A stretch of DNA of 64,000 nucleotides from Mycoplasmatota bacterium (GCA_022774645.1 JALFKQ010000003.1:1854-65853); one strand, 5' to 3'. Positions 21,032 to 46,279 are shown, counted from the first letter of the stretch. The notes: generated by a model not told the origin, from the letters alone. A program made the numbers and translations.

Positions 21032-21056
21032 CCTCTATTCTCCAATAATAATATCA
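21032..21056 (-). promoter_or_regulatory. Extended -10 plus AGAATAGAGG element (copy 1)
   Basis: TGaTATTAT-tattgg-AGAATAGAGG-tagat-ATG. Confidence 0.65.
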
Positions 21057-21094
21057 AAAACTAAATAAAAAATAAATAACATTTAAAAAGAATT

Positions 21095-21925
21095 TCAATT
21101 TTTGAAATTCTTTTCATCATAATCATCTAAGAAAAAATATTTACTTTCTCTATCATGATAACCTAATATAGTATTTAAATTGACATTAAAAGTAGATTTA
21201 AATACATTATAATCAATATTTGGATTTACTTTCTTTAATTCTTTTATTAAATTCTTTATCTCTTTTCTCTTAGAATTATTTTCATATTCACTTCTTTCAG
21301 TAAACTTACAAGCACAATTTATAAATGTAAGATTATTACCATTAACAAATCTTAATATATCATGTTCTCTAACATAATATAAAGGTCTTATAAGTTCCAT
21401 TCCTTCAAAATTATCACTATGTAACTTAGGCATCATAGTTTTATATTCAGAAGCATAAAACATACTTAAAAGAATAGTTTCAACAGCATCATCAAAATGA
21501 TGACCTAATGCTATCTTATTACAACCTAATTTTTTAGCTTGGTTATATAAAGCACCTCTCCTCATTCTAGCACATAAATAACAAGGAGAAACCTTTTGAT
21601 TTTCAACTACACTAAATATATCAGTAGTAAATATATTTAAATCAATATCCATTAATTTAGCATTAGATTTAATCAATTCTAAATTCTTTTCATTATAGCC
21701 AGGATTCATACAAATAAAGACTAAATCAAAATTAACATCTCCATGTCTTTTTAATTCTTGCATACATTTAGCAAGTAAAAATGAATCCTTACCACCAGAA
21801 ATACATACAGCTACTTTGTCTCCTTCATTAACAAGTTTAAATTCTTTAACAGCTTTAACAAATCTAGCCCATATTTCTTTTCTATAAGTTTTAATTATAC
21901 TTTTTTCTATTTCTTTATTATTCAT
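21095..21925 (-). CDS. ttcA: tRNA 2-thiocytidine biosynthesis TtcA-family protein
   Basis: SGGKDS PP-loop, CYLCARMRRG, GHHFDD and IRPL motifs. Confidence 0.9.
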   Translation of the reverse strand: MNNKEIEKSIIKTYRKEIWARFVKAVKEFKLVNEGDKVAVCISGGKDSFLLAKCMQELKRHGDVNFDLVFICMNPGYNEKNLELIKSNAKLMDIDLNIFTTDIFSVVENQKVSPCYLCARMRRGALYNQAKKLGCNKIALGHHFDDAVETILLSMFYASEYKTMMPKLHSDNFEGMELIRPLYYVREHDILRFVNGNNLTFINCACKFTERSEYENNSKRKEIKNLIKELKKVNPNIDYNVFKSTFNVNLNTILGYHDRESKYFFLDDYDEKNFKN

Positions 21926-22754
21926 TATTCATCACATCAAACATATCTATTATTCCATTTTGTTTTTTATAAGCTTTAAATGTATTCTTTACTAACATAA
22001 CAACTGTCATAGGACCTACTCCACCTGGAACAGGAGTTAAATATGAACATTTCTCCATAACATTAGGATTAACATCTCCACATATCTTCTTATTAACTCT
22101 ATTTATACCAACATCAATAATAACAGCATCCTTTTTAATCATAGATTTACTAATAATATTCTTTTTACCAACAGCTACAATTAATATATCAGCATTCTTA
22201 GTATATTGTTTTAAATTTTCAGTTTTAGAATGACATATAGTAACAGTAGCATTTCTTTTTAAACATTCTCTAACCATAGGTATACCTACTGCTTTACTTC
22301 TTCCAATTACAACAATATTTTTTCCTTCAAGATTAATTTTATAATAATCAAAAATTTCCATAACACCATATGCAACAGGAGGAACAAATGCACTTCCACT
22401 TCTAAAACCGTCAACATCTTTATTAATATCAACAGTATTAACAATTCTATCCTCATTAAATTTTTTAGGTAAAGGTAATTGAACAATTATACCATTAATA
22501 TATTTATCTTTATTAAGTTCTTTAATCTTTTTAATAACCTTTTCTTCATTAACACTTTCATCAAATGATAAATGTAAAAAGCTCATTCCTACATATTCAC
22601 AAGCTTTCTTTTTATTATTAACATATATTTTACTAGCAGGATCATCTCCAATAGTAATAACAGCTAATACCGGTGTTACTTTATATGATTCAACATTACC
22701 TTTGATTTCATCTTTAATCTTGGCACTTAAATTTTTACCATCTAATAAAATCAT
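21918..22754 (-). CDS. folD: Methylenetetrahydrofolate dehydrogenase/cyclohydrolase
   Basis: YVNNK, GIIVQLPLP, KDVDG, DVGINR and TPVPGGVGPMT motifs. Confidence 0.97.
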   Translation of the reverse strand: MILLDGKNLSAKIKDEIKGNVESYKVTPVLAVITIGDDPASKIYVNNKKKACEYVGMSFLHLSFDESVNEEKVIKKIKELNKDKYINGIIVQLPLPKKFNEDRIVNTVDINKDVDGFRSGSAFVPPVAYGVMEIFDYYKINLEGKNIVVIGRSKAVGIPMVRECLKRNATVTICHSKTENLKQYTKNADILIVAVGKKNIISKSMIKKDAVIIDVGINRVNKKICGDVNPNVMEKCSYLTPVPGGVGPMTVVMLVKNTFKAYKKQNGIIDMFDVMNNE

Positions 22755-22756
22755 AA

Positions 22757-23440
22757 TTACCCCTCATAATATTCTACAAATCTAACATTTTTAATAACAA
22801 CATCATTAATAGGTTTATCATTCATATTAGTTTCAACAGAAGCAATCTTATCAAGGACATCATATCCACTAACAAGTTTACCGAAACCAGCATATTTCCC
22901 ATCTAAATAAGTCGCATCATCTTGAACAATATAAAATTGACTAGAAGCAGAATTAAATGTTTCACTAGTTTCAGGATTACTACCTTTTTTTCTTGCCATT
23001 GATAAAACTCCTCTAACATGACTAATATCATTTTTAACACCATTAGCTTCAAATTCACCTTTAATAGTTTTATCACTACCACCAATTCCATTACCTTGTG
23101 GATCTCCAGTTTGAATAACAAAGTTTTTCATTACTCTATGAAATATAAGACCACTATAAAAATTCTTGCTAACTAGATTCTTAAAATTCTCAACAGTAAT
23201 TGGTGCTTTATCAGGATATAACTCAGCAACCATAATTCCATAATCTCTAACATCAATCATAACTAAATTAGTTTCTTTATCACTAGAAACATATTTCTTA
23301 GTTTTAATAGTATAAATAGTTTTACCATCTACTTCACTAGTAGTATAATTAAGATTCTCTTCTTCTTTATTACCACAACTACTTAAAATAAATAATAAAC
23401 TCATACATAAAAATATTTTAATAACCTTTTTCACTTTCAT
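22757..23440 (-). CDS. Cyclophilin-type peptidyl-prolyl isomerase, lipoprotein
   Basis: Lipobox LSSC; APITVENF, FHRV, QTGDP, SMAR, SQFYI and YAGFG motifs. Confidence 0.93.
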   Translation of the reverse strand: MKVKKVIKIFLCMSLLFILSSCGNKEEENLNYTTSEVDGKTIYTIKTKKYVSSDKETNLVMIDVRDYGIMVAELYPDKAPITVENFKNLVSKNFYSGLIFHRVMKNFVIQTGDPQGNGIGGSDKTIKGEFEANGVKNDISHVRGVLSMARKKGSNPETSETFNSASSQFYIVQDDATYLDGKYAGFGKLVSGYDVLDKIASVETNMNDKPINDVVIKNVRFVEYYEG

Positions 23441-23508
23441 CACCAAAATAATTTTATCATAAGCATTATAAAATGTCATCAAAAGAAAATAGATTTCACA
23501 ATTGAAAC

Positions 23509-25254
23509 CTATTTAACAACTACTTTTAAATACTTAGGAATATTAATTACATCACTATTTTCAAATAAATTAACAATATCACTATTCTTAACATAAACAA
23601 TATTCGAATTAGAATCCCAAAACATATTTTCTAAATTAACTTTATCACTAATATCAAATGTAGAAATATCCAAACTTTTCACATGACAATTTCTAAACAT
23701 TTGATCCATATTAGTAACTTTACTTGTATTAAAACTACTTAAATTTATTTCAGTTGCATCACTAACAGCAAACATACCACCCATATCTGTTACATTACTA
23801 GTATCCCATGAACTTAAATCCAATTTAGATACATTTGTTCCCCAAAACATGCTTCCCATCTTTGTTACATTATGTGTATCAAAACTCTCAAGACCTTTTA
23901 TTTCAGTGGCTTCTGTATTCATAAACATTATGCCCATATCTGTTACATTACTTGTATCAAATGAACTGACATCTATTATTTTAGATGTATTAAACATAAA
24001 CATAGCACCCATATCTGTTACATTACTTGTATCAAAATTACTTAAATTTAAATAATCTACTTTAGTACCATAAAACATTGCATTCATGTTAATTACCTTA
24101 CTTGTATTAAAATTCTCAATACCAATTATTTTAGTAGCACTAGACCAAGCTAAAAAACATAAGAAACTTGTAACATTACTTGTATCAAAACTGCTCAAAT
24201 TAAGAGTTAAAGCTTTACTTTCTCTAAACATATGTTCCATATTAGTAACTTTACTTGTATTAAAAAACTCTAAACCATCTATAACTTCTGCTTTACTAGC
24301 CCAAAACATAGCATATAATCTAATAACATTATTAGTAGTAAAATTACTTAAATCTAATTTAGTAGCCTCAGTACTTTTAAACATAAAATCCATATATTTT
24401 ACTTTTTTAGTATTAAAATTAGCTACATCGAGAGTTTTAGCTTTGCTTCCATTAAACATATTTCCCATAGTTGTAACATTATGAGTATCCAATTTTTCTA
24501 AACCAATTATTTCTGTAGCTGCACTTTCATAAAACATAGAATTCATATTAGTAACTTTACTTGAATTAAAATTACTTATATCAATTGAACTAGCCTTACT
24601 ATACCTATACATTGCATTAGTTGACACTACAGGTTTGTCATTTATGAATGCACATATCTCTCCACTAACTGAACTTGTACTTGATTTATCTGTAAGTTGT
24701 ACTCCCCATCCGTCGTTTCTAATGTTTTGCCAATCGATAGTAGTACCATCTTCTAGATTTTTCCCCTCTTGTCTATATCTATATGTGTAAGCACCTTGAA
24801 CAAACTCAGCACCTTGAACTAGTTTACCATCATAAGTACATTTAACAGGTTCTGGAGCATAAGGATTTCCTTCACAATCTCCTTCTTCTATTAATTCATA
24901 AGTTAAACTTTTTATATCATTAATACGACTTCTTATACAATAAGTCCCATCAGAAACTTTAAAATCTTTTATAACACCACTATCATCTAATCTTATATCA
25001 TAAACTAATTTATCTGTATCTATATTTAATTTATTATCCGAAGAATCTATTTTATTGATAACATTTCCCCTCATATTTTCAGTAATATATTTTTTAGATA
25101 CTTCTTTGTATAAATTTTTAGCTTCTGTTAAAAATATTTCTTTCTTCACTCTATTAAACATTTCAAGTACATTTGGAAGAGCTATTATAATAAGTAAAGC
25201 TAAAATTGCTATTACAGCTAGTAATTCCACTAATGTAAATCCTTTTTTATTCAT
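23509..25254 (-). CDS. Type IV prepilin fused to an array of DUF285 (BspA-like) repeats
   Basis: KKG/FTLVELLAVIAIL class III signal; more than 10 repeats of FxTSxVTxMxxMF. Confidence 0.9.
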   Translation of the reverse strand: MNKKGFTLVELLAVIAILALLIIIALPNVLEMFNRVKKEIFLTEAKNLYKEVSKKYITENMRGNVINKIDSSDNKLNIDTDKLVYDIRLDDSGVIKDFKVSDGTYCIRSRINDIKSLTYELIEEGDCEGNPYAPEPVKCTYDGKLVQGAEFVQGAYTYRYRQEGKNLEDGTTIDWQNIRNDGWGVQLTDKSSTSSVSGEICAFINDKPVVSTNAMYRYSKASSIDISNFNSSKVTNMNSMFYESAATEIIGLEKLDTHNVTTMGNMFNGSKAKTLDVANFNTKKVKYMDFMFKSTEATKLDLSNFTTNNVIRLYAMFWASKAEVIDGLEFFNTSKVTNMEHMFRESKALTLNLSSFDTSNVTSFLCFLAWSSATKIIGIENFNTSKVINMNAMFYGTKVDYLNLSNFDTSNVTDMGAMFMFNTSKIIDVSSFDTSNVTDMGIMFMNTEATEIKGLESFDTHNVTKMGSMFWGTNVSKLDLSSWDTSNVTDMGGMFAVSDATEINLSSFNTSKVTNMDQMFRNCHVKSLDISTFDISDKVNLENMFWDSNSNIVYVKNSDIVNLFENSDVINIPKYLKVVVK

Positions 25255-25263
25255 TTAACTTCA

Positions 25264-25289
25264 CCTCTATTCTATTAGATATTTTATCA
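25264..25289 (-). promoter_or_regulatory. Extended -10 plus AGAATAGAGG element (copy 2)
   Basis: TGaTAAAAT-atctaat-AGAATAGAGG-tgaagttaa-ATG. Confidence 0.65.
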
Positions 25290-25291
25290 TT

Positions 25292-25319
25292 AAAAAAGCA
25301 CTATTTCTAGTGCTTTTTT
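25292..25319 (-). terminator. Terminator after trmK
   Basis: aaaaaagcacta/tagtgctttttt with a GAAA loop on the minus strand. Confidence 0.8.
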
Positions 25320-25348
25320 AAAGTAAAATTAAATGACATAATTTTAGC

Positions 25349-25969
25349 TTAATTAAATTTTATATATTTTAGTACTTCATTTATTTTATCATTTCTATCT
25401 TTTGATTGTTCTTTTATACTAAGATACTTATTTTTTAAATAATTCAAATAATCATTATATAAATTATCATCTATATGATTTTTACCAAGTAATATTTCTT
25501 TTCTTGTTAAATCATTATTACCTTCTTTAAATAATATTAAATTATAATATTTATTATTTTCTTTTATTATTAATTCTCTATCAATTTTATAATTTAAGTC
25601 ATTCATTTTAGTTCTTAATATATCATGATAATTATTAGATATTGTTATTACTTTTTTAAATCTTAATTTTGTATTATTAAGTATTTCTAATATTGTATGT
25701 GTACCCATACCCGAAAGTACTACTGTATCTGCTTCTCCTTCTTTAATATTTGAAAGTCCATCAGATACTCTTAAATCTATATAATTACTATATCCTAATT
25801 TATTAATATCTTCTTTTGCTCTTAATATTACATTTATACTTATATCACTAGCAATAGATTTTATATTAGATTTTGCAAGCATAATACCAAGTTTAGCTTG
25901 ATCACACCCTACATCTACTACTTTATCATTTTTATCAATAAATGAATATATACTTTCTATTCTATTCAA
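25349..25969 (-). CDS. trmK: tRNA (adenine22-N1)-methyltransferase
   Basis: DVGCDQA, RVSDGL and SGMG motifs; downstream of sigA. Confidence 0.9.
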
Positions 25970-27053
25970 TTAAGAAATCCTTTAATTTTTTAGCTCTTGA
26001 TGGGTGTCTTAATTTTCTAAGAGCTTTTGCTTCTATTTGTCTAATTCTTTCTCTTGTAACTTTAAATTGTTTACCAACTTCTTCAAGAGTATGACTAGAT
26101 CCATCAAATAAACCAAATCTAAGTTCTAAAACTTCTTTTTCTCTTACTGTTAATGTATCAAGAACTTCTCTTAATTCATCTTTAAGTATTTCATAAGTAG
26201 CAAATTCTTCCGGTGACATAGTTCTTTCATCAGCAAGAAAATCTCCTAAATGTGAATCATCTTCTTCACCTATTGGTGTTTCTAAACTTACTGGATCTTG
26301 ACTAATTTTTCTAATTTCAACTATTTTATCAGCTGAAAGTCCCATCTTTTTAGCAAGTTCTTGATCAGTAGGTTCACGATTAAGTTCAAGAGTCATTTGT
26401 CTTTCTATTCTAGCCATTTTATTAATAGTTTCAACCATATGTACAGGAACTCTTATTGTTCTTGCTTGATCTGCTAGTGCTCTTGTTATAGCTTGTCTTA
26501 TCCACCAAGTAGCATAAGTACTAAATTTATACCCTTTATCATAATCAAACTTTTCAACAGCTTTCATAAGTCCAATATTACCTTCTTGAATTAAATCTAA
26601 GAATAATAGACCTCTTCCTACATATCTTTTAGCAATAGAAACAACAAGTCTAAGGTTAGATTCAGCAAGAATATTTTTAGCTTGTTCATCTCCTTCTGCA
26701 ACTCTCTTAGAAAGTTCTTGTTCTTCTTCAAGAGATAACAAACTTATTTTACCTATTTCTTTTAAGTACATTCTTACATTATCATTAACACTCATATCCT
26801 TACTTTCATCAGGAACATCATCAATAATAATATCATTCTTTAAATCAATATTTCCATTATCTTCTTCATCTTCAGCTCTAACTTCAATATGATTTTCATT
26901 AAGAGCATTATATAACTCATCCAAAGCATTAGCATCTAAATCTAAATCAATAGTTTTTTTAGCTATTTGTTCATAAGTTAAAAATCCTTCTTTTTTACCA
27001 GCTTCAACTAATTCTTGTAATCTTTCTTCAAAAGTTTTAATATTATTTACCAT
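25962..27053 (-). CDS. rpoD: Primary sigma factor SigA/RpoD
   Basis: [38 protein letters not shown]. Confidence 0.99.
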
Positions 27054-28786
27054 TTCAACACTTCCTTATTTATATTTTCTATTTTCTTTGCTATTTCTAT
27101 TTTTTTATTAACATCGAATGTTTCACTCATTTCATTTTTTAGAGTTTCTATTCTTTTGTTAATTGAATACATTTTAATAGTATTAATATAATCATCTAAC
27201 TCTTCAGTTGTATATTCTTCATTATTATGATATTTCATTACTTCTTTAACAGTATTCATAAGTTTATCATTATCAGAAATATAATCTAAAAAATCACTAT
27301 AATTATAATAACCATAATCATTTCTAAACTCAATTATTTTATATGCTAAATTAGCTCTATCATCTTGTATTAAATATCCAAGAGTATTTTCAAAATAAAG
27401 TATTACATCCTCATAATTAAGCATTAAGTAAAGTAATCTAAGTTCACTCTTATCATATTTATTATATCTAGTTATTTTCTTTGGCTCTTCTACTTGCTTA
27501 ACAGCCATTTTTTTATTTAATTTGATTTCATTTCTTATATCAGATTCATTTATACCAAACTCTTCTGCGATATCTTTTATTTTTAAATCAATTAATATTT
27601 GACTATCTAAATCATTTAGTGAAAGAACAGCTTCTCTTATATATTTTGCTTTTTCAACAGCATCTTTCATATTTCTTTTTCTTTTTAAATATTTAAGTTT
27701 AAAATCTATGAAAGAAACTCTATTATCATAAGCAATTTTAAAAGCATCACTTCCTTTATTTTTTATAAAATCATCACTATCTTTATAATCTTCAAATACT
27801 ATAACTTCTGTATCTATATTATTTTTTAGTAATGTTTCTCCTGCTTCGATTGTACCTTTAACACCGGCATCATCTTGATCAAGATTTAGTATTACTTTAC
27901 ACTTCCATTTAATTATTTTTTCTAGATGTTTTTGTGTAAATGCAGTACCCATTATTGCTACTACATTCTTATAACCAACAGATGACATTCTAATGGTATC
28001 CATAAAACCTTCAGTAATAATAATTTCTCTCTTTTTCTTTATTTCTGCAAGTGCATTATTGATATTATAAAATACCTCACTCTTCTTAAATATATCTGTT
28101 TCTTTTGTATTTGAATATTTAGGAAGTGTATTATTATTTAAATCTTCATTAGTATATTTTCTACCACTAAATGCTACTACATTGTTATTCTCATCAATAA
28201 TTGGAAATATAATTCTATCTTGAAATGTATCATAATATCTACCATTTATTTCTTTAATAATATCCAGTTTTACTAAATCATCATAGCTATATTTTTTAAA
28301 TAATATAGTTGATAATTTATTAGTTGTTGAGAGTCCAATATTAAATTCATTAATTATATCCTTTGATATTTTTCTTTCTTCTAAATACTTAGTAGCCTTA
28401 ATTCCTTCAGTCGAAAGTAAATTTGCTTTAAAATATTTATTAACCGTATCATTAATCTCATATAATTTTTCATATTTAGTATTTACTTTTTTAGTAGTAT
28501 TTATATCTACTTTAATATTAGCTCTATCAGCTAACATCTTTAATGCTTCTATAAAAGTTATACCATTATATTTTTGAACAAATGTTATAACATTACCACT
28601 CTCACCACAACTAAAACATTTATAAATTTGCTTATCTGGTTGAACACTAAATGATGGACTATGATCATCATGAAAAGGACATAAAGCTTTATTTTTATCA
28701 TTTAAATTAATATAGCTACCAATGACATCTACTATATCATTTTTAGATTTAATTTCATTAATAACAGACTTATCAATAAATGCCAT
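27047..28786 (-). CDS. dnaG: DNA primase
   Basis: CPFH...CFSC zinc finger, EGFMD and DQDDAG TOPRIM motifs. Confidence 0.97.
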
Positions 28787-28906
28787 CTTTTTGTCCTCCT
28801 AATAGTTATATACGAAATAAAATTCAAAAACACTTCTTTTTTTGTGAATTTTATGAAAAAATCGCTCATATTATATCATATAAGCGAAATTTTGTCCATA
28901 AATTTA

Positions 28907-29401
28907 CTATAATTCAAGTTTTTGTTCCTTTAACTTAGACAATATCGTAATAGCATTTGTATAACCATTAGTTGAATAAAAAATTGTATCACCTATTGTT
29001 CTTAAATATATTCTTCTACCTATAATACTAGAAGTATCAGTAACTATAGTAGCAGAACAATCATTAGAACTATTAGTAGATACTTTAACATCAAATGTAT
29101 GACCATTTATTAAAAGTATAACAGTATCACCTAAACCAACAATATCTTCACTATTTTCTTTTTCAGGATTTATAACTATTCTTTCAAGTCTAGTCACCTT
29201 CTCTTCTAATTCTTCACTAAGACTAGTTCCTTCACTTTTAAGATTTTCTAAAAAAGATTGTTTAGTAAATTCATCAAGACCCATTCTATCACTAACATAT
29301 TCTCTTAATGATTCTACTCTTTCCATATTTTCTTTTACAGCATTAATACTTTTTAAATATTCATTATACCCTTTTTCACTAACATAGATTTCATTTTCCA
29401 T
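28907..29401 (-). CDS. Divergent GreA/GreB-like factor
   Basis: IYVSEKGY coiled-coil N-terminus, VGLGDTV and SIIGRRI...IGD C-terminal domain; lacks the GDLSENAEY tip. Confidence 0.6.
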   Translation of the reverse strand: MENEIYVSEKGYNEYLKSINAVKENMERVESLREYVSDRMGLDEFTKQSFLENLKSEGTSLSEELEEKVTRLERIVINPEKENSEDIVGLGDTVILLINGHTFDVKVSTNSSNDCSATIVTDTSSIIGRRIYLRTIGDTIFYSTNGYTNAITILSKLKEQKLEL

Positions 29402-29486
29402 AAAAAACCCCCATATAAAAATTGTTCATATAATATACCATAAATTTAGAAAAAACACAATAAAAAATAATTAAGCAAGAACTTAA

Positions 29487-30632: not shown

Positions 30633-30643
30633 AACATCTCTCC

Positions 30644-32398: not shown

Positions 32399-32423
32399 TA
32401 ATTCTCCTTATATATAAATATAA

Positions 32424-32440: not shown

Positions 32441-32451
32441 CTATTCATAAA

Positions 32452-34290
<1,839 letters not shown>

Positions 34291-35906: not shown

Positions 35907-35915
35907 ATACCTCCC

Positions 35916-35942
35916 TTAGCACTCCTTTCTTTCTAGTGCTAA
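35916..35942. promoter_or_regulatory. CIRCE element 1
   Basis: TTAGCACTC-N9-TAGTGCTAA. Confidence 0.92.
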
Positions 35943-35961
35943 ATTAATTATATCACTATTT

Positions 35962-35988
35962 TTAGCATTGTCAATATGTGAGTGCTAA
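35962..35988. promoter_or_regulatory. CIRCE element 2, overlapping the -35 (TTGACA-16-TATAAT, minus strand)
   Basis: TTAGCATTG-N9-GAGTGCTAA. Confidence 0.88.
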
Positions 35989-36072
35989 TTTTTTTAAAAT
36001 TTTAAAATTTAATACAAAAACACTTGATATTTAATTACTTTATAGCAATTACAATAAAAAAATCTTAAAAGA

Positions 36073-36798: not shown

Positions 36799-36831
36799 AC
36801 TTACTTTAAAAGCATAAAGATAACTTTATGC

Positions 36832-36912
36832 TTATTTTCCTTTCTTATATTCTAAATAATATTCTATCTTTCCAGTTTCCTTAAATTTATTCCAAGCTTT
36901 CTTTTTATTCAT
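36832..36912 (-). CDS. yqzL: YqzL-family small protein (26 aa), absent from the ORF track
   Basis: MNKKKAWNKFKETGKIEYYLEYKKGK, matching W..F..TG.I..YL.YK; AAGGAG RBS; era-yqzL-recO synteny. Confidence 0.85.
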   Translation of the reverse strand: MNKKKAWNKFKETGKIEYYLEYKKGK

Positions 36913-36966
36913 ATCTCTCTCCTTACAATATTATATTGCAAGAAAAATAAAATATTTATTCAAAAA

Positions 36967-37854
36967 TTAATCATTTTTTATTAAATATCCTAAATCTTTA
37001 ATGAATTTTTCTTTTTCTCTCCACTTTTTAATTGTTTTACAATATAATTCAAGATAAACTTTCATACCAAGTAATTCTTCCATATCAAGTCTAGCTTCAT
37101 GACCAATAGTTTTAATCATACTTCCATTACTACCGATAATAATTTTTCTAAGTGAATCTCTATCAACAATTATATCTATATATATTTTAGCTATATTATT
37201 TTTTTCTTCATAACCAACTAATTTACAAGATATTGAATGAGGTACTTCATCATTAGTATGAATAAATATTTTTTCTCTAACTATTTCTGATAATCTAAAT
37301 TCCATTTCAGCAGTAGTAGTTTCACCATCTATAAAATATTTAACATTATCAGGTAAGTATTCTTTAAGAACTTTAATTAATCTATCAATATTATCATTCT
37401 TTAATGCTGATACTGGAATTATTTCAGCGAATTCATATAGATTTTTATATTCATCAATCTTCTTAAGTATTTCTTCATCACTTAATTTATCAATTTTATT
37501 AAGAATTAAAAATACTGGTTTTTTTACTCCTGATAGTTTATCAATAATAAATTGATCACCTTTTCCATACGGAACACTTGCATCTACTACTAAAAGTAAT
37601 ATATCAACATCATTAATTGAATAATAAGCTTGGCTATTAAGTGCTACTCCAAGTTTATCAACTGGTTTATGAATTCCAGGAGTATCTACAAATATAATTT
37701 GAGTATCTTCTTCATTATAAATACCCTCTACTAAGTTTCTAGTTGTTTGTGGCTTTGGACTAATAATTGCAACCTTTTCTTTTATGATTTGATTTAATAA
37801 TGTACTTTTACCTGTATTAGGTCTACCAATTAAACTTACAAAACCACTTTTCAT
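36967..37854 (-). CDS. era: GTPase Era
   Basis: MKSGFV, GRPNTGKS, PQTTR, DTPG, KH domain. Confidence 0.98.
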   Translation of the reverse strand: MKSGFVSLIGRPNTGKSTLLNQIIKEKVAIISPKPQTTRNLVEGIYNEEDTQIIFVDTPGIHKPVDKLGVALNSQAYYSINDVDILLLVVDASVPYGKGDQFIIDKLSGVKKPVFLILNKIDKLSDEEILKKIDEYKNLYEFAEIIPVSALKNDNIDRLIKVLKEYLPDNVKYFIDGETTTAEMEFRLSEIVREKIFIHTNDEVPHSISCKLVGYEEKNNIAKIYIDIIVDRDSLRKIIIGSNGSMIKTIGHEARLDMEELLGMKVYLELYCKTIKKWREKEKFIKDLGYLIKND

Positions 37855-38231
37855 ACTAAATCCTCCTTAGTAAATGTAGTAGTCATTAGTTTTTCAAAAC
37901 TCATAACTTCCATTTTACCATCATGAGTCATTATATTAAACATAACATCTTTATCAAAAAACTCTAAAAATGTTTGTTTACATATATTACATGGATAACA
38001 AATTTCATCACTACTAGTCATTAAATATAATACTTTAAATTCTCTTTCACCATGACTAACAGCATTGTTAATCGCATTTCTCTCAGCACATATAGTACCA
38101 CCATATGATGCGTTTTCTATATTAACACCTTCATAAAAATTACCATTTTTAGTTTCAACTATACAAGCAAAATGCATATTTGAATAAGGCGCATAACTAT
38201 TCTCTAATAATTTAATTAATCTATCTTTCAT
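37851..38231 (-). CDS. cdd: Cytidine deaminase
   Basis: YAPYS, NIENASY, CAER and PCNIC motifs. Confidence 0.96.
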   Translation of the reverse strand: MKDRLIKLLENSYAPYSNMHFACIVETKNGNFYEGVNIENASYGGTICAERNAINNAVSHGEREFKVLYLMTSSDEICYPCNICKQTFLEFFDKDVMFNIMTHDGKMEVMSFEKLMTTTFTKEDLV

Positions 38232-38239
38232 ATTCCTCC

Positions 38240-38638
38240 TTAAAATAATGCCACTACTTTTGGCCCAAAAATAATTAATCCAACTATGATTGCAATAATA
38301 GCAAATACAAACACAGCTGCTGCAGCTGTATCTTTAGCAACCTTAGCAAGCGGATGATATTCCTCAGTAACCAAATCAACAACTGCTTCAATAGCTGTAT
38401 TAATAAGTTCACAAGATATAACAAGACCCATAGTAAGCATTAATATAGCCCACTCTATACCACTTAATTTAAATATAAATGCTGCAATAGACACTACAAG
38501 AGCCATACCAACATCAAATGCTAAATTTTGCTCATTTCTATAAGCATACTTTAATCCTTTAATTGGATAAGTAAAACTATGAAAGAATTTCTTTATACCC
38601 TTTTGAGCCTTTCTTTCATCTCGTGATATCATATTCAT
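38240..38638 (-). CDS. dgkA: Diacylglycerol/undecaprenol kinase
   Basis: ELINTAIEAVVD and AKDTAAAAV motifs. Confidence 0.95.
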   Translation of the reverse strand: MNMISRDERKAQKGIKKFFHSFTYPIKGLKYAYRNEQNLAFDVGMALVVSIAAFIFKLSGIEWAILMLTMGLVISCELINTAIEAVVDLVTEEYHPLAKVAKDTAAAAVFVFAIIAIIVGLIIFGPKVVALF

Positions 38639-39065
38639 TTAATATTTCCTCCTCTTTTGCTCTCATTACAGCTTTATCCTCAGGAGTCATATGATCATAA
38701 CCAAGTAAATGTAAAAGCCCATGAACTGCTAAATAACAAAATTCCCTCTTAATACTATGCCCATATTCTTTTGCTTGTTCAACACATCTATCATAACAAA
38801 TATAGATTTCACCTAAAAATCTAATATTATCATATTCTAAATCATCTACTTCTTCAAAAGCAAAAGATATTACATCAGTAACTGCATCCTTATCTCTATA
38901 TTCTCTATTTATTTCCTGTATTCTATTTTTATCAACTATAACTATATTAAGCATAGGATTATTAACTTTCAAATGTTTACATGCAAATCTAATAACCTTA
39001 TCTAATTCACTTATATCAATATCTTCATGATTAGTTGTATTAATTATATAATCTTCCATACACAC
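38616..39065 (-). CDS. ybeY: rRNA maturation endonuclease YbeY
   Basis: TDVISF and HGLLHLLGYDH; start may be ATG 39059. Confidence 0.97.
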   Translation of the reverse strand: MCMEDYIINTTNHEDIDISELDKVIRFACKHLKVNNPMLNIVIVDKNRIQEINREYRDKDAVTDVISFAFEEVDDLEYDNIRFLGEIYICYDRCVEQAKEYGHSIKREFCYLAVHGLLHLLGYDHMTPEDKAVMRAKEEEILNEYDITR

Positions 39066-39072
39066 TCCTTAA

Positions 39073-39672
39073 CTACATAATCTTATAGACATATAAACCT
39101 ATAAGAATTAATATTATAACACTAAGTACATTATAAAGCCAATCTCTTCTTAAGAATTTAGGCATATTATTTCTAATTGCATTAAGTGCAGTGTAAAGTA
39201 AGAATCCAACTATACCACCTACTATATTTAAAATTATATCATCTATATCAAAACTTCTACCTATATAGTGTTGTACACTTTCTATTGTTAAACTTGAAAA
39301 TAATGATACGAGAGTAATTGTACCAAGTCCTTTAATATTAGCATAACTAGTAGCAAAATAACCAAGAGGTATAAATAAAACAATATTTCCAACTACTTGT
39401 TTATAAAAACTAGCACTACCTACTGGATATCTCATAATTTCTCTAAAAGGCATTAAATTTGTCCCACCACCAGGAATATCTTGACTAGTAACTAACTGGA
39501 ACAACATAACCAAATATGCAAGAAATAATAAATTAAATATTTCTTCATGAAAAACAAACTTTCTTTTATCACTTTTTAATATATAAGTAACTCTTAAAAT
39601 TACAACAATCGCAACAACTATAATAAGAGTTGGTAATGACATCTTTATAACACTTCTAATTGCTCTCTCCAT
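39073..39672 (-). CDS. VanZ-family membrane protein
   Basis: NLMPF, GNIVLFIPLG and RSFDIDDIILN motifs. Confidence 0.9.
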   Translation of the reverse strand: MERAIRSVIKMSLPTLIIVVAIVVILRVTYILKSDKRKFVFHEEIFNLLFLAYLVMLFQLVTSQDIPGGGTNLMPFREIMRYPVGSASFYKQVVGNIVLFIPLGYFATSYANIKGLGTITLVSLFSSLTIESVQHYIGRSFDIDDIILNIVGGIVGFLLYTALNAIRNNMPKFLRRDWLYNVLSVIILILIGLYVYKIM

Positions 39673-40810
39673 TCTCTTCTCCTATATCTTTTATTTCAGA
39701 AGCAACCCCAATTTTTTCATAAACTTTAAAAAACACTTCTAAGTTTATTTTACTACTATTTACCTCTTTTTTCAAAACTTTTTTTGAAATAATATATTCA
39801 TCACTAGAGAGCTTTTTTTCTATCTCAGAAACACTTCTATTAATTGCTTCATTATAAGCTTCTTCTTCACTTAAAATAATTTCATTATAACTATATTTTT
39901 TCTTTTCTTCTTTATATAATTTAAAAAATAAATATGGTTTATCAATAACAATACTTTTCTTATTTATAGTATCATTACTATCATATTTACCAGTTAAAGT
40001 AAATTCATGTCCAAATATATCTAAATAATAATGATTAATAGTTTTACCTGTATAAACATAATCTACTCTTTTAAATGGAATACTTATATTAACAGTTTTC
40101 CATGTTTCAGCATAAATAACACCATCACTATGTATCTTATCAACAACAGTTTCATTTTTAATAACATTACCTGTTATTAATGTGTCTCCCTTTTTAACAT
40201 AATCTCCTATATCAATAGCTTTACTACCACTATGAACAACAATATGTTTAATAACACCATCTTTATCCGCAACAATATCACTTGGTTCATTTCTATTTAC
40301 ATTATTGTTAGATTTAACTCTTGGTGTAACTTCAATATAATATTTACAACCTTTTTCTCTTATTTCTATCCATTCTAATGTATCCTTATTATCAACAAGA
40401 ATCTTATTTTTAATACTATTTAATTTATAAAAAGATACTTTCCTTTTATATAAAGAAACATCATTATCATTTAAACTATCATTTATAATTTTGATAATGT
40501 CTTCATTATCACTATTAATCTTAATATCAAAAATAGTATTACATAACAAAAAAAGTAACATAAAAGATATAATCAAAGATAAAAATACATATTTATTTCT
40601 ATTAAAAATATCAATAACATTCTCTTTACCATAATACTTAACAATATGACATTTATATCTTCTTCTAATATATAAATAATCATCATAAGATACAATTACT
40701 ACATAATAATCATTATACTTATCAAGTGAATCATAATAAATTCTATTATAGATTAAATAATTTAAAAACTTATTACTACATTCATTAACAATAATTTTAA
40801 CTTTATTCAC
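39656..40810 (-). CDS. yqfD: Sporulation protein YqfD (SpoIV family)
   Basis: TM followed by DIVADKDGVI...GDYVKKGDTLITG and VIYAETW. Confidence 0.88.
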   Translation of the reverse strand: MNKVKIIVNECSNKFLNYLIYNRIYYDSLDKYNDYYVVIVSYDDYLYIRRRYKCHIVKYYGKENVIDIFNRNKYVFLSLIISFMLLFLLCNTIFDIKINSDNEDIIKIINDSLNDNDVSLYKRKVSFYKLNSIKNKILVDNKDTLEWIEIREKGCKYYIEVTPRVKSNNNVNRNEPSDIVADKDGVIKHIVVHSGSKAIDIGDYVKKGDTLITGNVIKNETVVDKIHSDGVIYAETWKTVNISIPFKRVDYVYTGKTINHYYLDIFGHEFTLTGKYDSNDTINKKSIVIDKPYLFFKLYKEEKKKYSYNEIILSEEEAYNEAINRSVSEIEKKLSSDEYIISKKVLKKEVNSSKINLEVFFKVYEKIGVASEIKDIGEENGESN

Positions 40811-41033
40811 AATTAAACTCTATATCCTTATATTCACCTTTAATAGATAAATCATGCTCATCTAATCTATTAATAACCATATTATTTCCTTTAATCTTAA
40901 TAGTTTTATTATTTAATTTGATTTTAATAAATGTTTCACTTATATCAATAATTCTTATGTAATTTTTAATACATATTAAATTATTTTCTAAACAAATATA
41001 ATAACTATTATTTTTAATTATATCTTTTATCAT
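40803..41033 (-). CDS. yqfC: YabP/YqfC-family sporulation protein
   Basis: IKNY..IIDI...IKIKGNNM.I......IKG; upstream of yqfD; sigma-E-like promoter TTCTAAA-N13-CATATTAT. Confidence 0.8.
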   Translation of the reverse strand: MIKDIIKNNSYYICLENNLICIKNYIRIIDISETFIKIKLNNKTIKIKGNNMVINRLDEHDLSIKGEYKDIEFNCE

Positions 41034-41103
41034 ATTAAATAATATGTACTATATAAAAATTTAGAAATTAAAAAACATTTAAATGAATTAAATGTTTTAT
41101 TAA

Positions 41104-42324
41104 TTAACCTATTCTAAATGCTGGACTAACTCCGTAATTATTTGTAGCTAGATTACTACCATTCCATGCTCCAACAGAACTTATAACGAAAAATTGTTGT
41201 GTATCATAACTAAATGCTGTTCTTAACCACCACTTATCAGCAATATTATCTTTCATTTTAGTTGCTCCAGCTGAAGTTGAATTAGTTACACCCTCATTTT
41301 GATAATAATCTAATATTCTTGTTGAATCCTTAGCAGTATCATTAGGATAAAACCAATCTGAATATATTTCTTTAGGTGATAGTAAATATAATTTATCTGT
41401 TGATGTAAAATTGGCTGAATCACTTCTTCCGTAACCAGAAACAACTATTGTATCTGTTATTCCATTTTTTAATTCAGTTGGTAATGAATTATAAATACTA
41501 TTATTTACAAATGTTCTTAAAGTCATTGCTGGCCATCCACCAACATTAGTATCAGTAGTATTCATTTGATAATTTGTAATTATGTCTTCAAATTCAAGTA
41601 CAAATCCGCAAGCAGTTTGTGAGAAACCTGACGCAGAACATTCACTTGGTGTTGATGTATCTGCTATTCTTATAAAATTTTTTCCATATTCTCCCAAATC
41701 TACTTCTTTTGTATCTCCAACATTATAACTAGCTATATTTCCAGATTTTACATTTGCAACAATCTCTTGCCAACTATCTCTATTAAATTGTGTAGTATTT
41801 TCTTCTATGCCAAGCACTCCATTAAACTTTTTACCTTGGTTATAGTTTTGACTTGCATTTGTTTCTTTAAAAGTAAATGTAAAAGTATATTTATGAGTAA
41901 TACCACTTTCTATTGAAATACTCTTACTAATTTTAGTACCATATATAGCTTTTTCTGCTATGTCTCCACAAATTCCTTCAACAGACTTATTTGCATTTAA
42001 TCTTTGACATGTAGCTGATATAAACATCTCATTATTAGTAATCTCGTTTGTTAATTCTTGCCAAATAATATTATATTCTGTATCAAGTGTTCCAGTATTT
42101 TCTACTGTTACTTCTTTTGTTACTGTCCACCCTGGTTTAATATTACTACCAACTATTTGTGGACTATCTGTATAAACAAGTTTTAATGTTCCTGCTTCTA
42201 CTACCATATCTTTAGCATTCTCATTTCCTATTACAGAACTACTAAAATATGCATAAGAAAGTCATACACTCATTAAGAATAATAAAACTATTCCAGTTAC
42301 AAATAATATTCTTTTATCATTCAT
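41104..42324 (-). pseudogene. SipW/TasA-type signal peptide protein with a C-terminal DUF6273 (CLec-fold) domain, interrupted by an in-frame TGA at codon 21
   Basis: MNDKRILFVTGIVLLFLMSV*LSYAYF is in frame with ORF 41104..42207; C-terminal WWLRT...GVSPAFRI. Confidence 0.75.
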
Positions 42325-42331
42325 ATATATC

Positions 42332-42353
42332 CCTCTATTCTGTTAAAATTATA
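42332..42353 (-). promoter_or_regulatory. -10 plus AGAATAGAGG element (copy 3)
   Basis: TATAAT-tttaac-AGAATAGAGG-gatatat-ATG. Confidence 0.65.
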
Positions 42354-42373
42354 CAATAAAAGAGATACTATTT

Positions 42374-43108
42374 CTAGTATCTCTTATCAAAATAAATCCT
42401 ATTTAAATAAAGTCCAACTGGTTCAGCACATATACCAGCAGATATTCTGTTTTCACTTTTAAATATTTTATCTATATCATCAATAGTTTTTTTGCCATTA
42501 TTAATGTCAAGTAAAAGTCCAACTATGTTTCTAATCATATATCTAAAAAAGCCACTTGATTCAAATCTTAAATAAAGTATTCCTTTTGTGATTTTATAAT
42601 CTAATTTCAAAACTCTTTCATATGATTTTTTATCTTTATCAGATGTAAAACTTTTAAAATTATGTTTACCACTTATTTTACTTATAAATTTATCAAGTAA
42701 TTCCCTTGTAATCTTTTTATTATATTGAAATATATAATCTTTATTAATCGGATCATAATCATTCATATTAATTTTATAAATATATTCTTTTTTTATACAA
42801 GAATATCTTGAATGAAACTCTTCACTTACTATTTTTATATTCTTAATATATATAGATTTGTCTATTAAACTATTTATACTGTGTTTAAGTCTATCAACAT
42901 TTATTTTTTTATCACTATCAAAATGACAATATTGATTAATTGCATGTACACCTTTATCAGTTCTTGAAGTACCTATGATATTAACATTTTCATTAAATAT
43001 CTTAGATACTATTTTTTCAAGTTCACCTTCAATAGTTTTTTCATTCTTTTGAATTTGATATCCATAAAACCTACTACCATCATAAGTAATATTCATTAAA
43101 TATCTCAT
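42374..43108 (-). CDS. truA: tRNA pseudouridine38-40 synthase
   Basis: YDGSRFYGYQ, SRTDKGVHA, FFRYMIR and GLYL motifs. Confidence 0.96.
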   Translation of the reverse strand: MRYLMNITYDGSRFYGYQIQKNEKTIEGELEKIVSKIFNENVNIIGTSRTDKGVHAINQYCHFDSDKKINVDRLKHSINSLIDKSIYIKNIKIVSEEFHSRYSCIKKEYIYKINMNDYDPINKDYIFQYNKKITRELLDKFISKISGKHNFKSFTSDKDKKSYERVLKLDYKITKGILYLRFESSGFFRYMIRNIVGLLLDINNGKKTIDDIDKIFKSENRISAGICAEPVGLYLNRIYFDKRY

Positions 43109-43860
43109 ATTACACCTTTATCCTTTAAATAAGCCAAAACTAATAAAATATGAAATGCTGTAAAAAATATATCGTAAAAACCTACTTTATTAGTTCTAAA
43201 ATTAGTCCTATATCTTCTTAAATTAAATAATTTTAACTCTCTTGAAAAAGCTATTTCTCTATTCTTTCTTCTTGTAAGTCTATGTACATTAAGATATAAA
43301 TTACATACAGCATACATTCTACCAAATATATTAGTATGATAATAATCAATTCCTCTTGATGCTTGTGCTTTTAATGTTTTATGTTCAACAGTTAATAATA
43401 ATGGAACATATCTAAGTATTGAATTAATTTTAAATGCAAGACCTGATATTGGTAAAAGCAATATATTAAAATATGATAAAAACTTTTCTATTCCATAAGC
43501 ACTTTCACTAGGAGAAGTTGTATAACTTATTATATTTAAATATTCTACTACAACAACTATTTTAGAAAGAACTACTAAACAACCACTCATATTCATTCTA
43601 AAACTAGCACAAATAAATGCTACTAAAATATATAAGTATCTTAATGACCAAAAAGTATTCATATAAAACTTCAATGGTACAAAACTAAGTAACATCATTA
43701 TAATAACTAAACCTAACATAAATAAATTTATATATAGCGAATTACAAAATATAACTAAAAATATTATTATAAGAAAATCTATTAATTTAATAACAGGATT
43801 TAGTCTATGTACAGAAGAATCAATTGGATAAAAAGAACCAAAAGAATTTCTAGAATACAT
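43105..43860 (-). CDS. ecfT: ECF transporter transmembrane component EcfT
   Basis: SSVHRLNPVIK and LRYVP...AQASRG motifs; ecfA-A'-T-truA synteny. Confidence 0.9.
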   Translation of the reverse strand: MYSRNSFGSFYPIDSSVHRLNPVIKLIDFLIIIFLVIFCNSLYINLFMLGLVIIMMLLSFVPLKFYMNTFWSLRYLYILVAFICASFRMNMSGCLVVLSKIVVVVEYLNIISYTTSPSESAYGIEKFLSYFNILLLPISGLAFKINSILRYVPLLLTVEHKTLKAQASRGIDYYHTNIFGRMYAVCNLYLNVHRLTRRKNREIAFSRELKLFNLRRYRTNFRTNKVGFYDIFFTAFHILLVLAYLKDKGVI

Positions 43861-44692
43861 CTCTATACACCCCCTTAATTAAATCATGAGTACTTGTATA
43901 GTTATATATTTCATGTCCATTTTTATTACATTCATTTATAAATGCCACTATTGGAGGAACTTCAAGATCTAATTCATTTAAGGTATCAACATTATTAAGA
44001 ATATCCTTTTCACCCTCACAAGCAAGTTTAGTCATATGCATTAAATATACATAATCAGCTATTTGATAACAAAATGCCGTATCTTTTGAAAGTAATATTA
44101 TTGTTTTTTTATATTTTGTTTTAAGAATTCTAAGTAACCTTAAAAGTTCAGTTTTATCGTTACTAGAAAGTCCAGCTGTAAATTCATCAAGTATAAGAAT
44201 ACTAGGATTATAAACAAGGGCACAAGCAAGTGCTACTTTTTTAGCATCACAAAATGATAAATCTTGTGGATTCATATCCAAATAACTATCATCTAAATTA
44301 ACAAGTTTAAGAGCTTCACTTGCTCTCATATCTATCTTTTCTAATTTATATTTAAAATATTTCATTCCAAATTCTATTTCTTTTTTAACAGTGTTATTAA
44401 AAAACATATCATAAGGATTTTTATAAACATAACCTGTATCAAATCTAAGTTTATTTATATTTTTAATTCTTTTACCATTATTAACAAATCTACCTACTTT
44501 AACACTACCTTTTGTTGGAATGATTAAAGCATTAATTAAATCCCCAATTGCTGTTTTACCACTGTTAGATGCACCTAAAAAAGCAAATATACCAGGACCT
44601 TTTATACTAAATGAAACATCATTTAATATTGTTTTTTCAAGTGGAGTAAATTCATTAACAGCAAAACTAACATGATCAAACTTTATTTCCAT
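43850..44692 (-). CDS. ecfA2: ECF transporter ATPase EcfA2 (partly degenerate)
   Basis: TPLEK, GASNSGKT, ILILDE; signature reads LSFCD. Confidence 0.85.
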   Translation of the reverse strand: MEIKFDHVSFAVNEFTPLEKTILNDVSFSIKGPGIFAFLGASNSGKTAIGDLINALIIPTKGSVKVGRFVNNGKRIKNINKLRFDTGYVYKNPYDMFFNNTVKKEIEFGMKYFKYKLEKIDMRASEALKLVNLDDSYLDMNPQDLSFCDAKKVALACALVYNPSILILDEFTAGLSSNDKTELLRLLRILKTKYKKTIILLSKDTAFCYQIADYVYLMHMTKLACEGEKDILNNVDTLNELDLEVPPIVAFINECNKNGHEIYNYTSTHDLIKGVYRDVF

Positions 44693-45447
44693 ATTGCACC
44701 TACCAATTTCTTATTTGTAAGATAATATTTATCAATTAATTTATAATCCATTAAATATTTATTAAGTTCAACAATAAATGGAAGTCCAAGACCAAGTCTT
44801 TTTAATATTTTTTCTTCATTTAATACACTTAATGTTTTACCTTCACATACTAACTTTTTATCATAAATAATAATTATTTTTTCACCAAACATAGTTTCCT
44901 CTATATCATTAGTAAAATTAATAACAATACCACCATTTTTAACATATTCTTTTAATATATCAAAAACTAATATTTTATCTTTATAATCTAATAATGAAAT
45001 AATATTATCAATAACAAGTATTTTAGGTTTAATAATTAATGAAGACATAATTTTCATTTTAATTTTATCACTGCATCCCAAACTATTAGGATCTTTATCA
45101 AGTAAAGAAGTTAATTTAAAAGTTTTAGCCATACTTTCTATATTTTCTTTAATATCATTTTTACCCATAGCAAGACTTTCAAGTCCAAATGCTATTTCAT
45201 CCATAACAGTTTCAGCTACAAAAATATCTAAATCTCTATAAAGAACATAATTCATTCTTCTTCTAACTTTACCAAAATTTATTTTATTAAGTTCTATATC
45301 TCCTAGAAATATATTTGCTTTTTTATTTCCATGTAAAAGAGTATGAACAAGTAAATCATTATTATTTCCTATTATAGAAACAAAATCCCCTTCTTTTAAA
45401 CTAAATTCTATATCTTCATCAAATCTATATTTAAAGTAATCATTCAT
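44683..45447 (-). CDS. ecfA1: ECF transporter ATPase EcfA1 (degenerate)
   Basis: FVAETVMDEIAFGLE and GLGLPF; Walker A is missing. Confidence 0.8.
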   Translation of the reverse strand: MNDYFKYRFDEDIEFSLKEGDFVSIIGNNNDLLVHTLLHGNKKANIFLGDIELNKINFGKVRRRMNYVLYRDLDIFVAETVMDEIAFGLESLAMGKNDIKENIESMAKTFKLTSLLDKDPNSLGCSDKIKMKIMSSLIIKPKILVIDNIISLLDYKDKILVFDILKEYVKNGGIVINFTNDIEETMFGEKIIIIYDKKLVCEGKTLSVLNEEKILKRLGLGLPFIVELNKYLMDYKLIDKYYLTNKKLVGAIWK

Positions 45448-45511
45448 AGTCTAATTCTCCTAAAATGATTATACAATATTTTTAAACAAAAAAAAACTAA
45501 CTTTCGTTAGT

Positions 45512-46249
45512 TTATTGAACATCTACTGTTTGATGAGTAATCATTTTAGCAGATAATCTTCTTCCGTCATTATGAATATTATAAAGACCTAAAACTCTCC
45601 ATTCTACTCCATCATATTTTAACCAGTTATTTGGATCAGATCCAGCAATAATACAAGCTTGAACTGGTGAACTAGTATCAACAGCACCTGTTGCATCTAA
45701 TTTATAAATACCAGTTACTCCATTAGAATCTTTTCCACATTTACATTTATCATTATCTTCTGGTCCCCACTTACCTACAAATAAATTTTTATCAAATCCA
45801 TCACAAACTTGTTCAACAAGTGTAGTACCTTCAACAGTCTTAGAACCATCATCTTTTGGATCAAATTCAGCAACAACACCAACTGTTTTCTTTCTAATAA
45901 CAACTTCTTTATTATTCATAGAACTATTATCTCTTGGATCAATGACACAACCATCAGCAGAAGAATTTTTACAATTACTTTCACCTTTGGCAACATCTTG
46001 TTTTAAATAGTCTTTAACTAATAGTTCAGAAACTTTAATTCTTACTTCATCAGTACCATTAAAAATATCAGGATTATTTGTTGCATATAACTCAGCAGCA
46101 GCTACAATCTTATCAACTTTATCACTGTACATTCTCTTATTAATATTCTTATTTATAGTTATAACACTAGGTACAGCAATAACAGTAATAATAGCTACAA
46201 TAGCTATAACAACTAATAATTCAGATAACGAAAAACCTTTTTTATTCAT
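45512..46249 (-). CDS. Type IV prepilin-like protein
   Basis: KKG/FSLSELLVVIAIV class III signal; AAELY...IKVSELL..DYL pilin head; Cys pairs. Confidence 0.9.
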   Translation of the reverse strand: MNKKGFSLSELLVVIAIVAIITVIAVPSVITINKNINKRMYSDKVDKIVAAAELYATNNPDIFNGTDEVRIKVSELLVKDYLKQDVAKGESNCKNSSADGCVIDPRDNSSMNNKEVVIRKKTVGVVAEFDPKDDGSKTVEGTTLVEQVCDGFDKNLFVGKWGPEDNDKCKCGKDSNGVTGIYKLDATGAVDTSSPVQACIIAGSDPNNWLKYDGVEWRVLGLYNIHNDGRRLSAKMITHQTVDVQ

Positions 46250-46257
46250 ATTCTCAA

Positions 46258-46279
46258 CCTCTATTCTATAAACATTATA
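46258..46279 (-). promoter_or_regulatory. -10 plus AGAATAGAGG element (copy 4)
   Basis: TATAAT-gtttat-AGAATAGAGG-ttgagaat-ATG. Confidence 0.65.

Follow-up and report, generated by a model that had tools for sequence, protein, structure and literature searches.

The stretch of DNA analysed here, called the window, comprises 64,000 nucleotides (nt) from a Mycoplasmatota bacterium (GCA_022774645.1, JALFKQ010000003.1:1854-65853) and carries one identical 10-nt element, AGAATAGAGG, upstream of four genes of surface-filament type. An earlier sequence-only reading took these four copies as the sign of a pilus and adhesin regulon. We consider it probable instead that the element is a split (bipartite) Shine-Dalgarno (SD) sequence at or near the 5' end of unusually short sigma-A transcripts, a reading drawn from the position of the copies, their complementarity to the 16S tail and the duplex predicted for it, the genome-wide arrangement of promoters and SD sequences, the genes concerned and the conservation of their leaders.

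An exact search found the 10-mer four times in the window, always on the minus strand, against a mean expectation of 0.16, and none of 100 dinucleotide shuffles reached four. With one mismatch allowed, only two further sites appeared, and the total of six stands at chance level (5.74 expected). Copy 1 (21032-21041) is the ribosome-binding site (RBS) of the first gene of a sortase-pilus operon (18110-21026, on the minus strand like the other three units), whose ATG (21026) follows 5 nt on. Pfam matches identify a small Cna-B-like subunit in this first gene (20391-21026), followed by a SpaA/GramPos_pilinBB/LPXTG pilin (18931-20394) and a sortase (18110-18931); the -10-like hexamer TATTAT (21048-21053), a consensus match only, lies 6 nt before the copy. 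Copy 2 (25264-25273) is the RBS of a type IV pilin-DUF285 gene with N_methyl and DUF285 domains (23509-25254; ATG at 25254, 9 nt on) and follows the -10-like hexamer TAAAAT (25281-25286) at 7 nt. Copy 3 (42332-42341) is the RBS of a camelysin/TasA-like DUF6273 gene with Peptidase_M73 (camelysin/TasA) and DUF6273 matches (41104-42324; ATG at 42324, 7 nt on), 6 nt behind the -10-like hexamer TATAAT (42348-42353). Copy 4 (46258-46267) is the RBS of a 245-amino-acid (aa) type IV pilin-like gene with an N_methyl domain (45512-46249; ATG at 46249, 8 nt on), and a sigma-A-type promoter (46274-46302) stands before it, composed of TTGAAA (46297-46302), a 17-nt spacer, TATAAT (46274-46279) and 6 nt leading to the element. 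Direct reading of the four leaders showed the element to be their sole SD-like sequence, with none further between it and the ATG.

The exact search, the site readings and the Pfam matches agree with the sequence-only reading on the four positions and their strand, on a -10 hexamer 6-7 nt before each copy and an ATG 5-9 nt after it, and on the surface-filament type of all four downstream genes. Co-directional housekeeping genes, named from their Pfam domains, surround the motif genes: a PP-loop-family gene, which we take to be tilS-like, folD, cyclophilin, trmK, sigA, dnaG, truA, ecfT/A/A', engB, nrnA and ackA. The earlier remark that no copy precedes housekeeping genes holds inside the window and fails genome-wide and in congeners, as described below.

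Pairing with the 16S tail

The genome holding the window (G000) measures 1.397 Mb in 36 contigs, with 25.5% GC and 93.85% completeness. Its 16S gene, on contig 19, ends GGATCACCTCCTTTCTA / ...CACCTCCTTTCTA, and an identical end was found in 7 of 41 genus genomes, where it is assembled. Against this tail, CCUCCUUUCU, the element offers two arms, AGAA and GAGG, around a 2-nt mismatch: AGAA lies opposite the terminal UUCU, GAGG(U) opposite (A)CCUC, and the central UA faces U and C. The two-arm duplex is the RNAduplex optimum for the motif, at -9.0 kcal/mol for the 10-mer alone and -10.5 to -11.1 kcal/mol with its usual flanking bases, compared with -6.7 kcal/mol for GAGGU behind an unrelated 5' flank and -18.2 kcal/mol for a perfect complement. 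Among 1,263 gene starts called by a crude open reading frame (ORF) caller of our own, the median was -9.6 and the quartile -11.5 kcal/mol, and the seven motif genes included fell between the 1st and the 42nd percentile.

Since the 16S 3' end is complementary to the motif in two arms, the motif is best taken as an SD sequence. This comparison, which the sequence-only reading had itself named as a way to refute its regulon, counts against the regulon, and the observation that the element departs from a perfect complement of the tail by its central TA is confirmed with the genome's own 16S end. In the mechanism proposed here, AGAA and GAGG, often GAGGU, would pair with the two ends of the single-stranded tail 5'-(A)CCUCCUUUCU-3' and leave the central UA unpaired, both arms being used by the ribosome. 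Such split pairing would strengthen a weak GAGG core to an intermediate level, as is typical of SD sequences in this genome, short of a very tight perfect duplex, and selection may act on that strength; no dedicated trans-acting regulator would be required.

A related arrangement is described for Bacillus subtilis, where one study reports a mature 16S end, determined by RNA-seq, with the 10-nt tail CCUCCUUUCU, an optimum distance of 15-21 nt from tail end to start codon and a preference for intermediate SD affinities (PMC5732282). The 10 nt of the motif cover CCUCCUUUCU exactly, and the tail end-to-start distance that they imply, 15-19 nt, lies within the optimum given in that study. The motif therefore shares with the extended SD of low-GC Firmicutes (B. 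subtilis type), which pairs with 5'-GAUCACCUCCUUUCU-3', the tail sequence, the distance and an intermediate predicted affinity. It departs from that type in several respects: the favoured core named in the same study is CCUCCUUU (PMC5732282), unlike the motif; the predicted pairing consists of two arms of 4-5 base pairs, separated by a constant 2-nt mismatch, and reaches to the UUCU at the very 3' end; and a single exact 10-mer recurs here and is conserved across the genus. In its sequence the motif thus shows all the features of an SD, in split form.

Under Markov models trained on RBS windows of G000, TAGAATAGAG was seen 7 times against 0.23-0.42 expected, which places the motif about 11th to 15th among over-represented 10-mers, the others being -10 words and long RBS words. 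Over-represented RBS words include AAGTAGGTGA (11 cases), AAGGAAGTGA (8) and TAGAAAGGAA (10), each complementary to nearly the whole tail, with a single mismatch. As an SD sequence TAGAGG is frequent (57 genes), and its commonest 4-nt prefix is AGAA, found 7 times against about 0.9 expected from the 4-mer frequency. The two arms occur as AGAA-N2-GAGG 18 times, against 7-10 times at other spacings and twice when they abut.

Promoter spacing and transcript starts

G000 contains 11 copies of AGAATAGAGG in total, all on the sense strand; a start codon (ATG or TTG) follows 9 of them at 5-9 nt, and the remaining two are intragenic. A -10-like hexamer stands 6-7 nt upstream of 7 of the 9 RBS copies. 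The same arrangement prevails in the genome as a whole: exact TATAAT peaks 15-29 nt before the crude gene starts (three 5-nt bins hold 275 matches, while bins further upstream hold about 18 each), the first SD base most often follows it at 6-7 nt (51 and 33 cases), and the seventh base after the -10 marks a rise in G content from 0.12 to 0.31. Because a spacing of 6-7 nt is the genome norm, the placement of the -10 before the motif is no mark of a special class. Based on this spacing, transcripts of the lineage would usually begin at the SD sequence. In the window, the starts at 3839, 8304, 57686 and 1141 (minus) show TATAAT or TAAAAT at 6-7 nt from the ATG and lack an SD in that interval, and the corresponding mRNAs are probably leaderless.

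Two studies, one with two pig-gut metatranscriptome runs and the other with a single oligo-dT run, supplied RNA contigs that cover the 245-aa pilin gene at 45524-46245 and 46114-46264, and none extends past 46267; unlike them, a DNA-like run bridges 44578-46451. Assembled contigs cannot show transcript starts or expression levels, and uncovered neighbours are uninformative, and the end of the contigs at the motif is a weak hint that the pilin transcript starts there. One RBS copy, before a beta-lactamase-family gene (C4:66483), overlaps the stop codon of the upstream gene and reads as an RBS internal to an operon, lacking a promoter upstream; therefore, placement at +1 is not required. The proposal that the mRNAs begin at the motif thus keeps the -10 spacing and this hint in its favour and does not extend to every copy.

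The same geometry would also suit an element acting in the DNA or the nascent transcript, either a repressor operator at +1, as the sequence-only reading had suggested among other options, or (T)AGAAT as a -10-like signal for sigma-dependent promoter-proximal pausing, a mechanism worked out at lambda PR'. In addition to the regular -10 distance of the 7 copies, a T precedes the motif in 6 of the 9 G000 copies and gives TAGAAT, a 5/6 match to TATAAT, and among the non-SD 5-mers found at offset 6 after TATAAT, AGAAT is the most frequent (9 of 329). The sortase leaders, however, have G or A in place of the T, and the position is not fixed: among pilin orthologues the motif lies 6-10 nt from the -10 and 7-10 nt from the ATG, and the copy at C4:66483 has no promoter at all. 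No palindrome or repeat partner is common to the sites; the candidate partner, TCTATT...AATAGA around the -10, occurs in many, not all, orthologues of the 245-aa pilin and is absent at the other sites. AGAAT as a general start-site word was also unconvincing, since 5 of the 17 TATAAT-N5-8-AGAAT promoters are motif copies and the other 12 compare with about 7.5 expected by our own rough estimate from base frequencies after TATAAT. We regard an operator or a pause signal as very improbable.

SD-like stabilisers near the 5' end are known from Gram-positive mRNAs, for example the STAB-SD of cryIIIA. The split SD sequence would likewise place an SD-type sequence at or near the 5' end, and by analogy 30S binding might protect the transcript from 5'-end-dependent decay. 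The STAB-SD is not the translation start site of its gene, whereas the motif is the only SD before the ATG.

Gene content and conservation of the leaders

Of the nine RBS copies in G000, five precede surface-filament genes, namely the four in the window and a second pilin-DUF285 gene on contig 20. By Pfam, the other four precede a DUF87/HerA-like ATPase, followed by a GH31 gene; an McrB-like P-loop protein without a Pfam family, followed by a DUF2357 (McrC-like) gene; a Na/Ca exchanger (Na_Ca_ex); and the beta-lactamase-family gene mentioned above (Beta-lactamase). The exact motif stands before 3 of 18 pilin-like genes in the genome and is missing from the other 15; among about 8 TasA-like genes, one, the broken gene in the window, has it exactly and one has it with a single mismatch. 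The whole-genome count equals that of the backwards-read control (11 versus 11), and of the 12 congeners, G009 and G010 alone have an excess over this control of more than 3.

A further sample of 40 copies was taken from the congeners G001-G005, G007, G009, G011 and G012, excluding pilin- and sortase-adjacent copies that had already been read. A gene start follows 22 or 23 of them, and 17 have no start after them. The genes concerned are McrB-like (four), HerA-like (two), pilin (two) and TasA-like (one), together with TatD (Pfam 2.9e-29), KsgA (RrnaAD/KsgA, 5.2e-22), PBP-like and MFS-like genes, a Listeria-Bacteroides-repeat protein and several membrane or unknown proteins. Moreover, TasA-like paralogues in five other congeners use RBS words other than the motif. 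With five surface genes and four others in G000, the motif has no functionally coherent set of targets, and the pilus and adhesin regulon is hard to uphold in view of this mixture and of the 15 pilin-like genes without the motif. The genome-wide count near starts gave a divided answer, with enrichment at surface genes in G000 and the motif at other genes too.

Several points weigh against the split SD sequence, and two of them, the enrichment at surface genes and the conservation of the whole 10-mer, favour something more specific. The first concerns gene content: the motif precedes 5 of about 27 pilin-like, TasA-like or sortase-pilus starts in G000 against 4 of about 1,240 others, and in G010, where 20 of 26 copies were examined, 17 precede TasA-like paralogues, one a HerA-like orthologue and two lack a usable start, both enrichment figures being inflated by paralogy. 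All gene starts, moreover, come from the crude caller, which chose them partly by SD score. The general habit that would explain the word, an AGAA placed two nt before GAGG as an extended SD, was rejected, as its excess equals the motif itself (7 cases) and is not matched by other AGAA-NN-GAGG forms.

The remaining points of this kind come from orthologous leaders. The 245-aa pilin has an orthologue in all 41 genus genomes searched, often placed, with a promoter and a terminator of its own, between engB and ecfA. Across 20 loci with 48-100% protein identity, 19 leaders hold the exact 10-mer, 7-10 nt before the ATG, and the remaining one has AGAATAAAGGAG. Both hexamers of the promoter (46274-46302 in the window) are kept in these orthologues as the -35 and the -10, while the spacer from the -10 to the motif differs in sequence and length (6-10 nt) and the bases between motif and ATG vary. 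Close orthologues of the first gene of the sortase operon occur in only 5 of 41 genomes, and all five leaders keep AGAATAGAGGT. HerA-like orthologues keep the motif in G007, G010 and G012 (four genomes with G000), and McrB-like orthologues in G001, G002, G005 and G011 (five with G000). Even the central unpaired TA is kept in orthologous leaders despite their diverged flanks. At the same loci, the control leader of ecfA retains only TAGGAG(AA), 6-8 nt, in 10 of the 11 loci holding the gene, and the eleventh (42% protein identity) has no TAGGAG. Conservation beyond the SD core, which the earlier reading had listed as a check, is therefore real, and it provides the strongest argument for more than a generic SD.

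Pairing, needed at positions 1-4 and 7-10, would account for part of this extra conservation. At position 5, opposite a U, the only bases that would stay unpaired are U and C, of which C is scarce in a genome of 25% GC; the A rather than U at position 6 is left unaccounted for by pairing. More distant pilin orthologues carry AGAGTAGAGG, AGTAGAGGTGG and AGATAAAGAGGTG. The variant AGAGTAGAGG keeps a G.U pair, and the orthologues that have lost AGAA have the core extended 3'-ward (GAGGTGG, GAGGTG).

The conservation, the enrichment and the unmatched excess just described would be expected if the 10-mer were the site of a dedicated RNA-binding protein that sits on the SD and co-regulates the translation or stability of mostly surface-filament mRNAs. 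The full 10 nt, the unpaired TA included, are exact in at least five unrelated orthologous groups while the flanks and the -10 spacer vary, and pilin, TasA-like and sortase-pilus genes are enriched for the motif in both G000 and G010. The genes served are heterogeneous, from HerA-like and McrB-like proteins to the exchanger, the beta-lactamase family, TatD and KsgA, and most TasA-like genes, like most pilin-like ones, lack the motif. No candidate binder was found, Rfam gave no match in the window at the gathering score, and pairing with the ribosome already covers 9 of the 10 positions; on balance, we consider such a protein unlikely. A somewhat stricter version, in which AGAAUAGAGG (written as RNA bait, AGAAUAGAGGU) would be the recognition word of an RNA-binding regulator that switches a fixed set of mRNAs at the RBS, seems slightly more doubtful. 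Its set could comprise the type IV pilin-like, sortase-pilus, TasA-like, HerA-like and McrB-like mRNAs. Such a regulator would explain why all ten bases are fixed, including two that are unable to pair, while the flanks drift, and it would point to a new kind of post-transcriptional control of surface filaments in an uncultured lineage that is common in the gut.

Regulons in which the SD is masked by a CsrA-type protein are known, for example CsrA on the flagellin gene hag of B. subtilis. By analogy, a repressor could bind the SD-overlapping sequence common to surface-filament genes here. CsrA sites, however, have a GGA core that AGAATAGAGG lacks, and the gene set is mixed, with no binder found.

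The sequence-only reading had also offered a small RNA with the seed CCUCUAUUCU, pairing with the leaders and co-regulating them. SD-masking small RNAs are plausible in general, and this is the only point in favour. Intergenic CCTCTATT sites number 21 and intergenic CTCTATTC sites 12; all of the former and 10 of the latter lie antisense to gene-start RBSs, the other two CTCTATTC sites (C5:50546 and C35:71768) have no T run or hairpin in the next 60 nt, and all 11 full 10-mer copies are accounted for. The intergenic search that had been proposed was run, and it found no free-standing, terminator-flanked complementary seed (CCTCTATT or CTCTATTC) in the intergenic DNA of the 93.85%-complete genome, which makes such a small RNA hardly credible. 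A literature search for AGAATAGAGG yielded, among the matches listed, titles on primers or unrelated topics, and we do not claim that the motif is unpublished; for the pilins of this lineage (CAG-524, Bacilli), the matches listed contained nothing.

Descent of the leaders and the TasA-like family

A different account of the recurrence is inheritance, in which a portable terminator-promoter-RBS cassette was copied before surface genes and the 10-mer, itself unselected, simply has not diverged. An nhmmer search found 7-8 homologous modules of about 60 nt in G000. Each has the form gatACTAGAAATAGTatc, a T run and TGTATAAT, followed by the motif or a variant such as AGGATAGGAGA; the genes downstream of them are pilin-DUF285 and TasA-like paralogues, queA and a second DUF87 gene. 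Before copy 2, the module (25281-25319, minus strand) has the terminator-like hairpin gcACTAGAAATAGTgc and a T run, and TAGAAA (25304-25309), which lies in the loop, precedes TAAAAT by 17 nt; before copy 3 (42348-42383, minus strand; nhmmer E = 4e-15), it has the hairpin gagatACTAGAAATAGTatctc and TAGAAA (42371-42376), 17 nt before TATAAT. A near-identical version of the copy-3 module lies at C19:117778, before a paralogue with AGAGTAGAGG. In view of the shared module of about 60 nt, copies 2 and 3 and the copy on contig 20 are therefore attributed to shared ancestry.

The flanks of the 245-aa pilin, sortase, HerA-like, McrB-like and exchanger copies are unrelated to the module. In orthologues, moreover, the flanks have diverged and the 10-mer is intact, which argues for selection rather than recent copying. 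Inheritance alone is thus a decidedly unlikely account of the word.

The split SD sequence would accommodate both sides of this evidence: some copies would descend from the duplicated module of the pilin-DUF285 and TasA-like paralogues, and selection for translation initiation would keep the word in each orthologous leader. If this is right, the motif is an ordinary RBS, common to pilus genes and ordinary genes, and an entire RBS word can stay fixed across a genus. The case would also point to an SD strength that is tunable by two-arm pairing, as predicted here, and it calls for caution, considering that small AT-rich genomes with very short leaders can repeat one long RBS word and so mimic a regulon.

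The modules themselves fuse a terminator and a promoter into one unit of about 60 nt, in which the loop supplies a -35-like hexamer. The hairpin has the form NNN-ACTAGAAATAGT-NNN, and its loop contains TAGAAA or TTGAAA at a distance of exactly 17 nt from the TGTATAAT TATAAT of the next gene. Its fixed core, ACTAGAAATAGT, is found as 12 copies of ACT[AT]GAAATAGT in G000, and the outer stem bases co-vary. Module hairpins were located at 25292-25319 and 42362-42383 in the window and at C19:117778, C20:33606, C4:39627, C22:4576, C29:20628 and C5:80648 in G000.

The DUF6273 gene behind copy 3 contains an in-frame TGA at codon 21 (42262-42264, minus strand), inside the signal peptide, and paralogues of the gene have Gly or Ser at this residue. 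It is read as a putative pseudogene (nonsense change), an assembly error or an off-state, not as recoding. An alternative genetic code for TGA was rejected, as the ORFs of the window tile well under table 11 and the paralogues have Gly or Ser at the site; genome-wide, ORFs of at least 100 codons number 1,643 with TGA as a stop and 2,250 without.

The TasA-like/DUF6273 family is strongly expanded in G007, G031, G032, G035 and G040, with 16-55 tblastn matches per genome of about 1.0-1.5 Mb each, and many of the copies in G007 contain internal stops. At least 17 TasA/camelysin-like paralogues are present in G010 (loci L031-L050, among them L031, L037, L042 and L049), and their promoters have 8-14 consecutive G between TTGACA and TATAAT, a pattern suggestive of slipped-strand phase variation in a family of surface proteins. 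G000 itself lacks poly-G promoter tracts of this type, its one C7 run being apparently coding from its context. In the DUF285 proteins, a separate repeated word was observed: ATACAAGTAA occurs 58 times in G000 (C5, C16, C20, C22 and others) and codes for the F-D/N-T-S-K/N-V motif of the DUF285 repeats.

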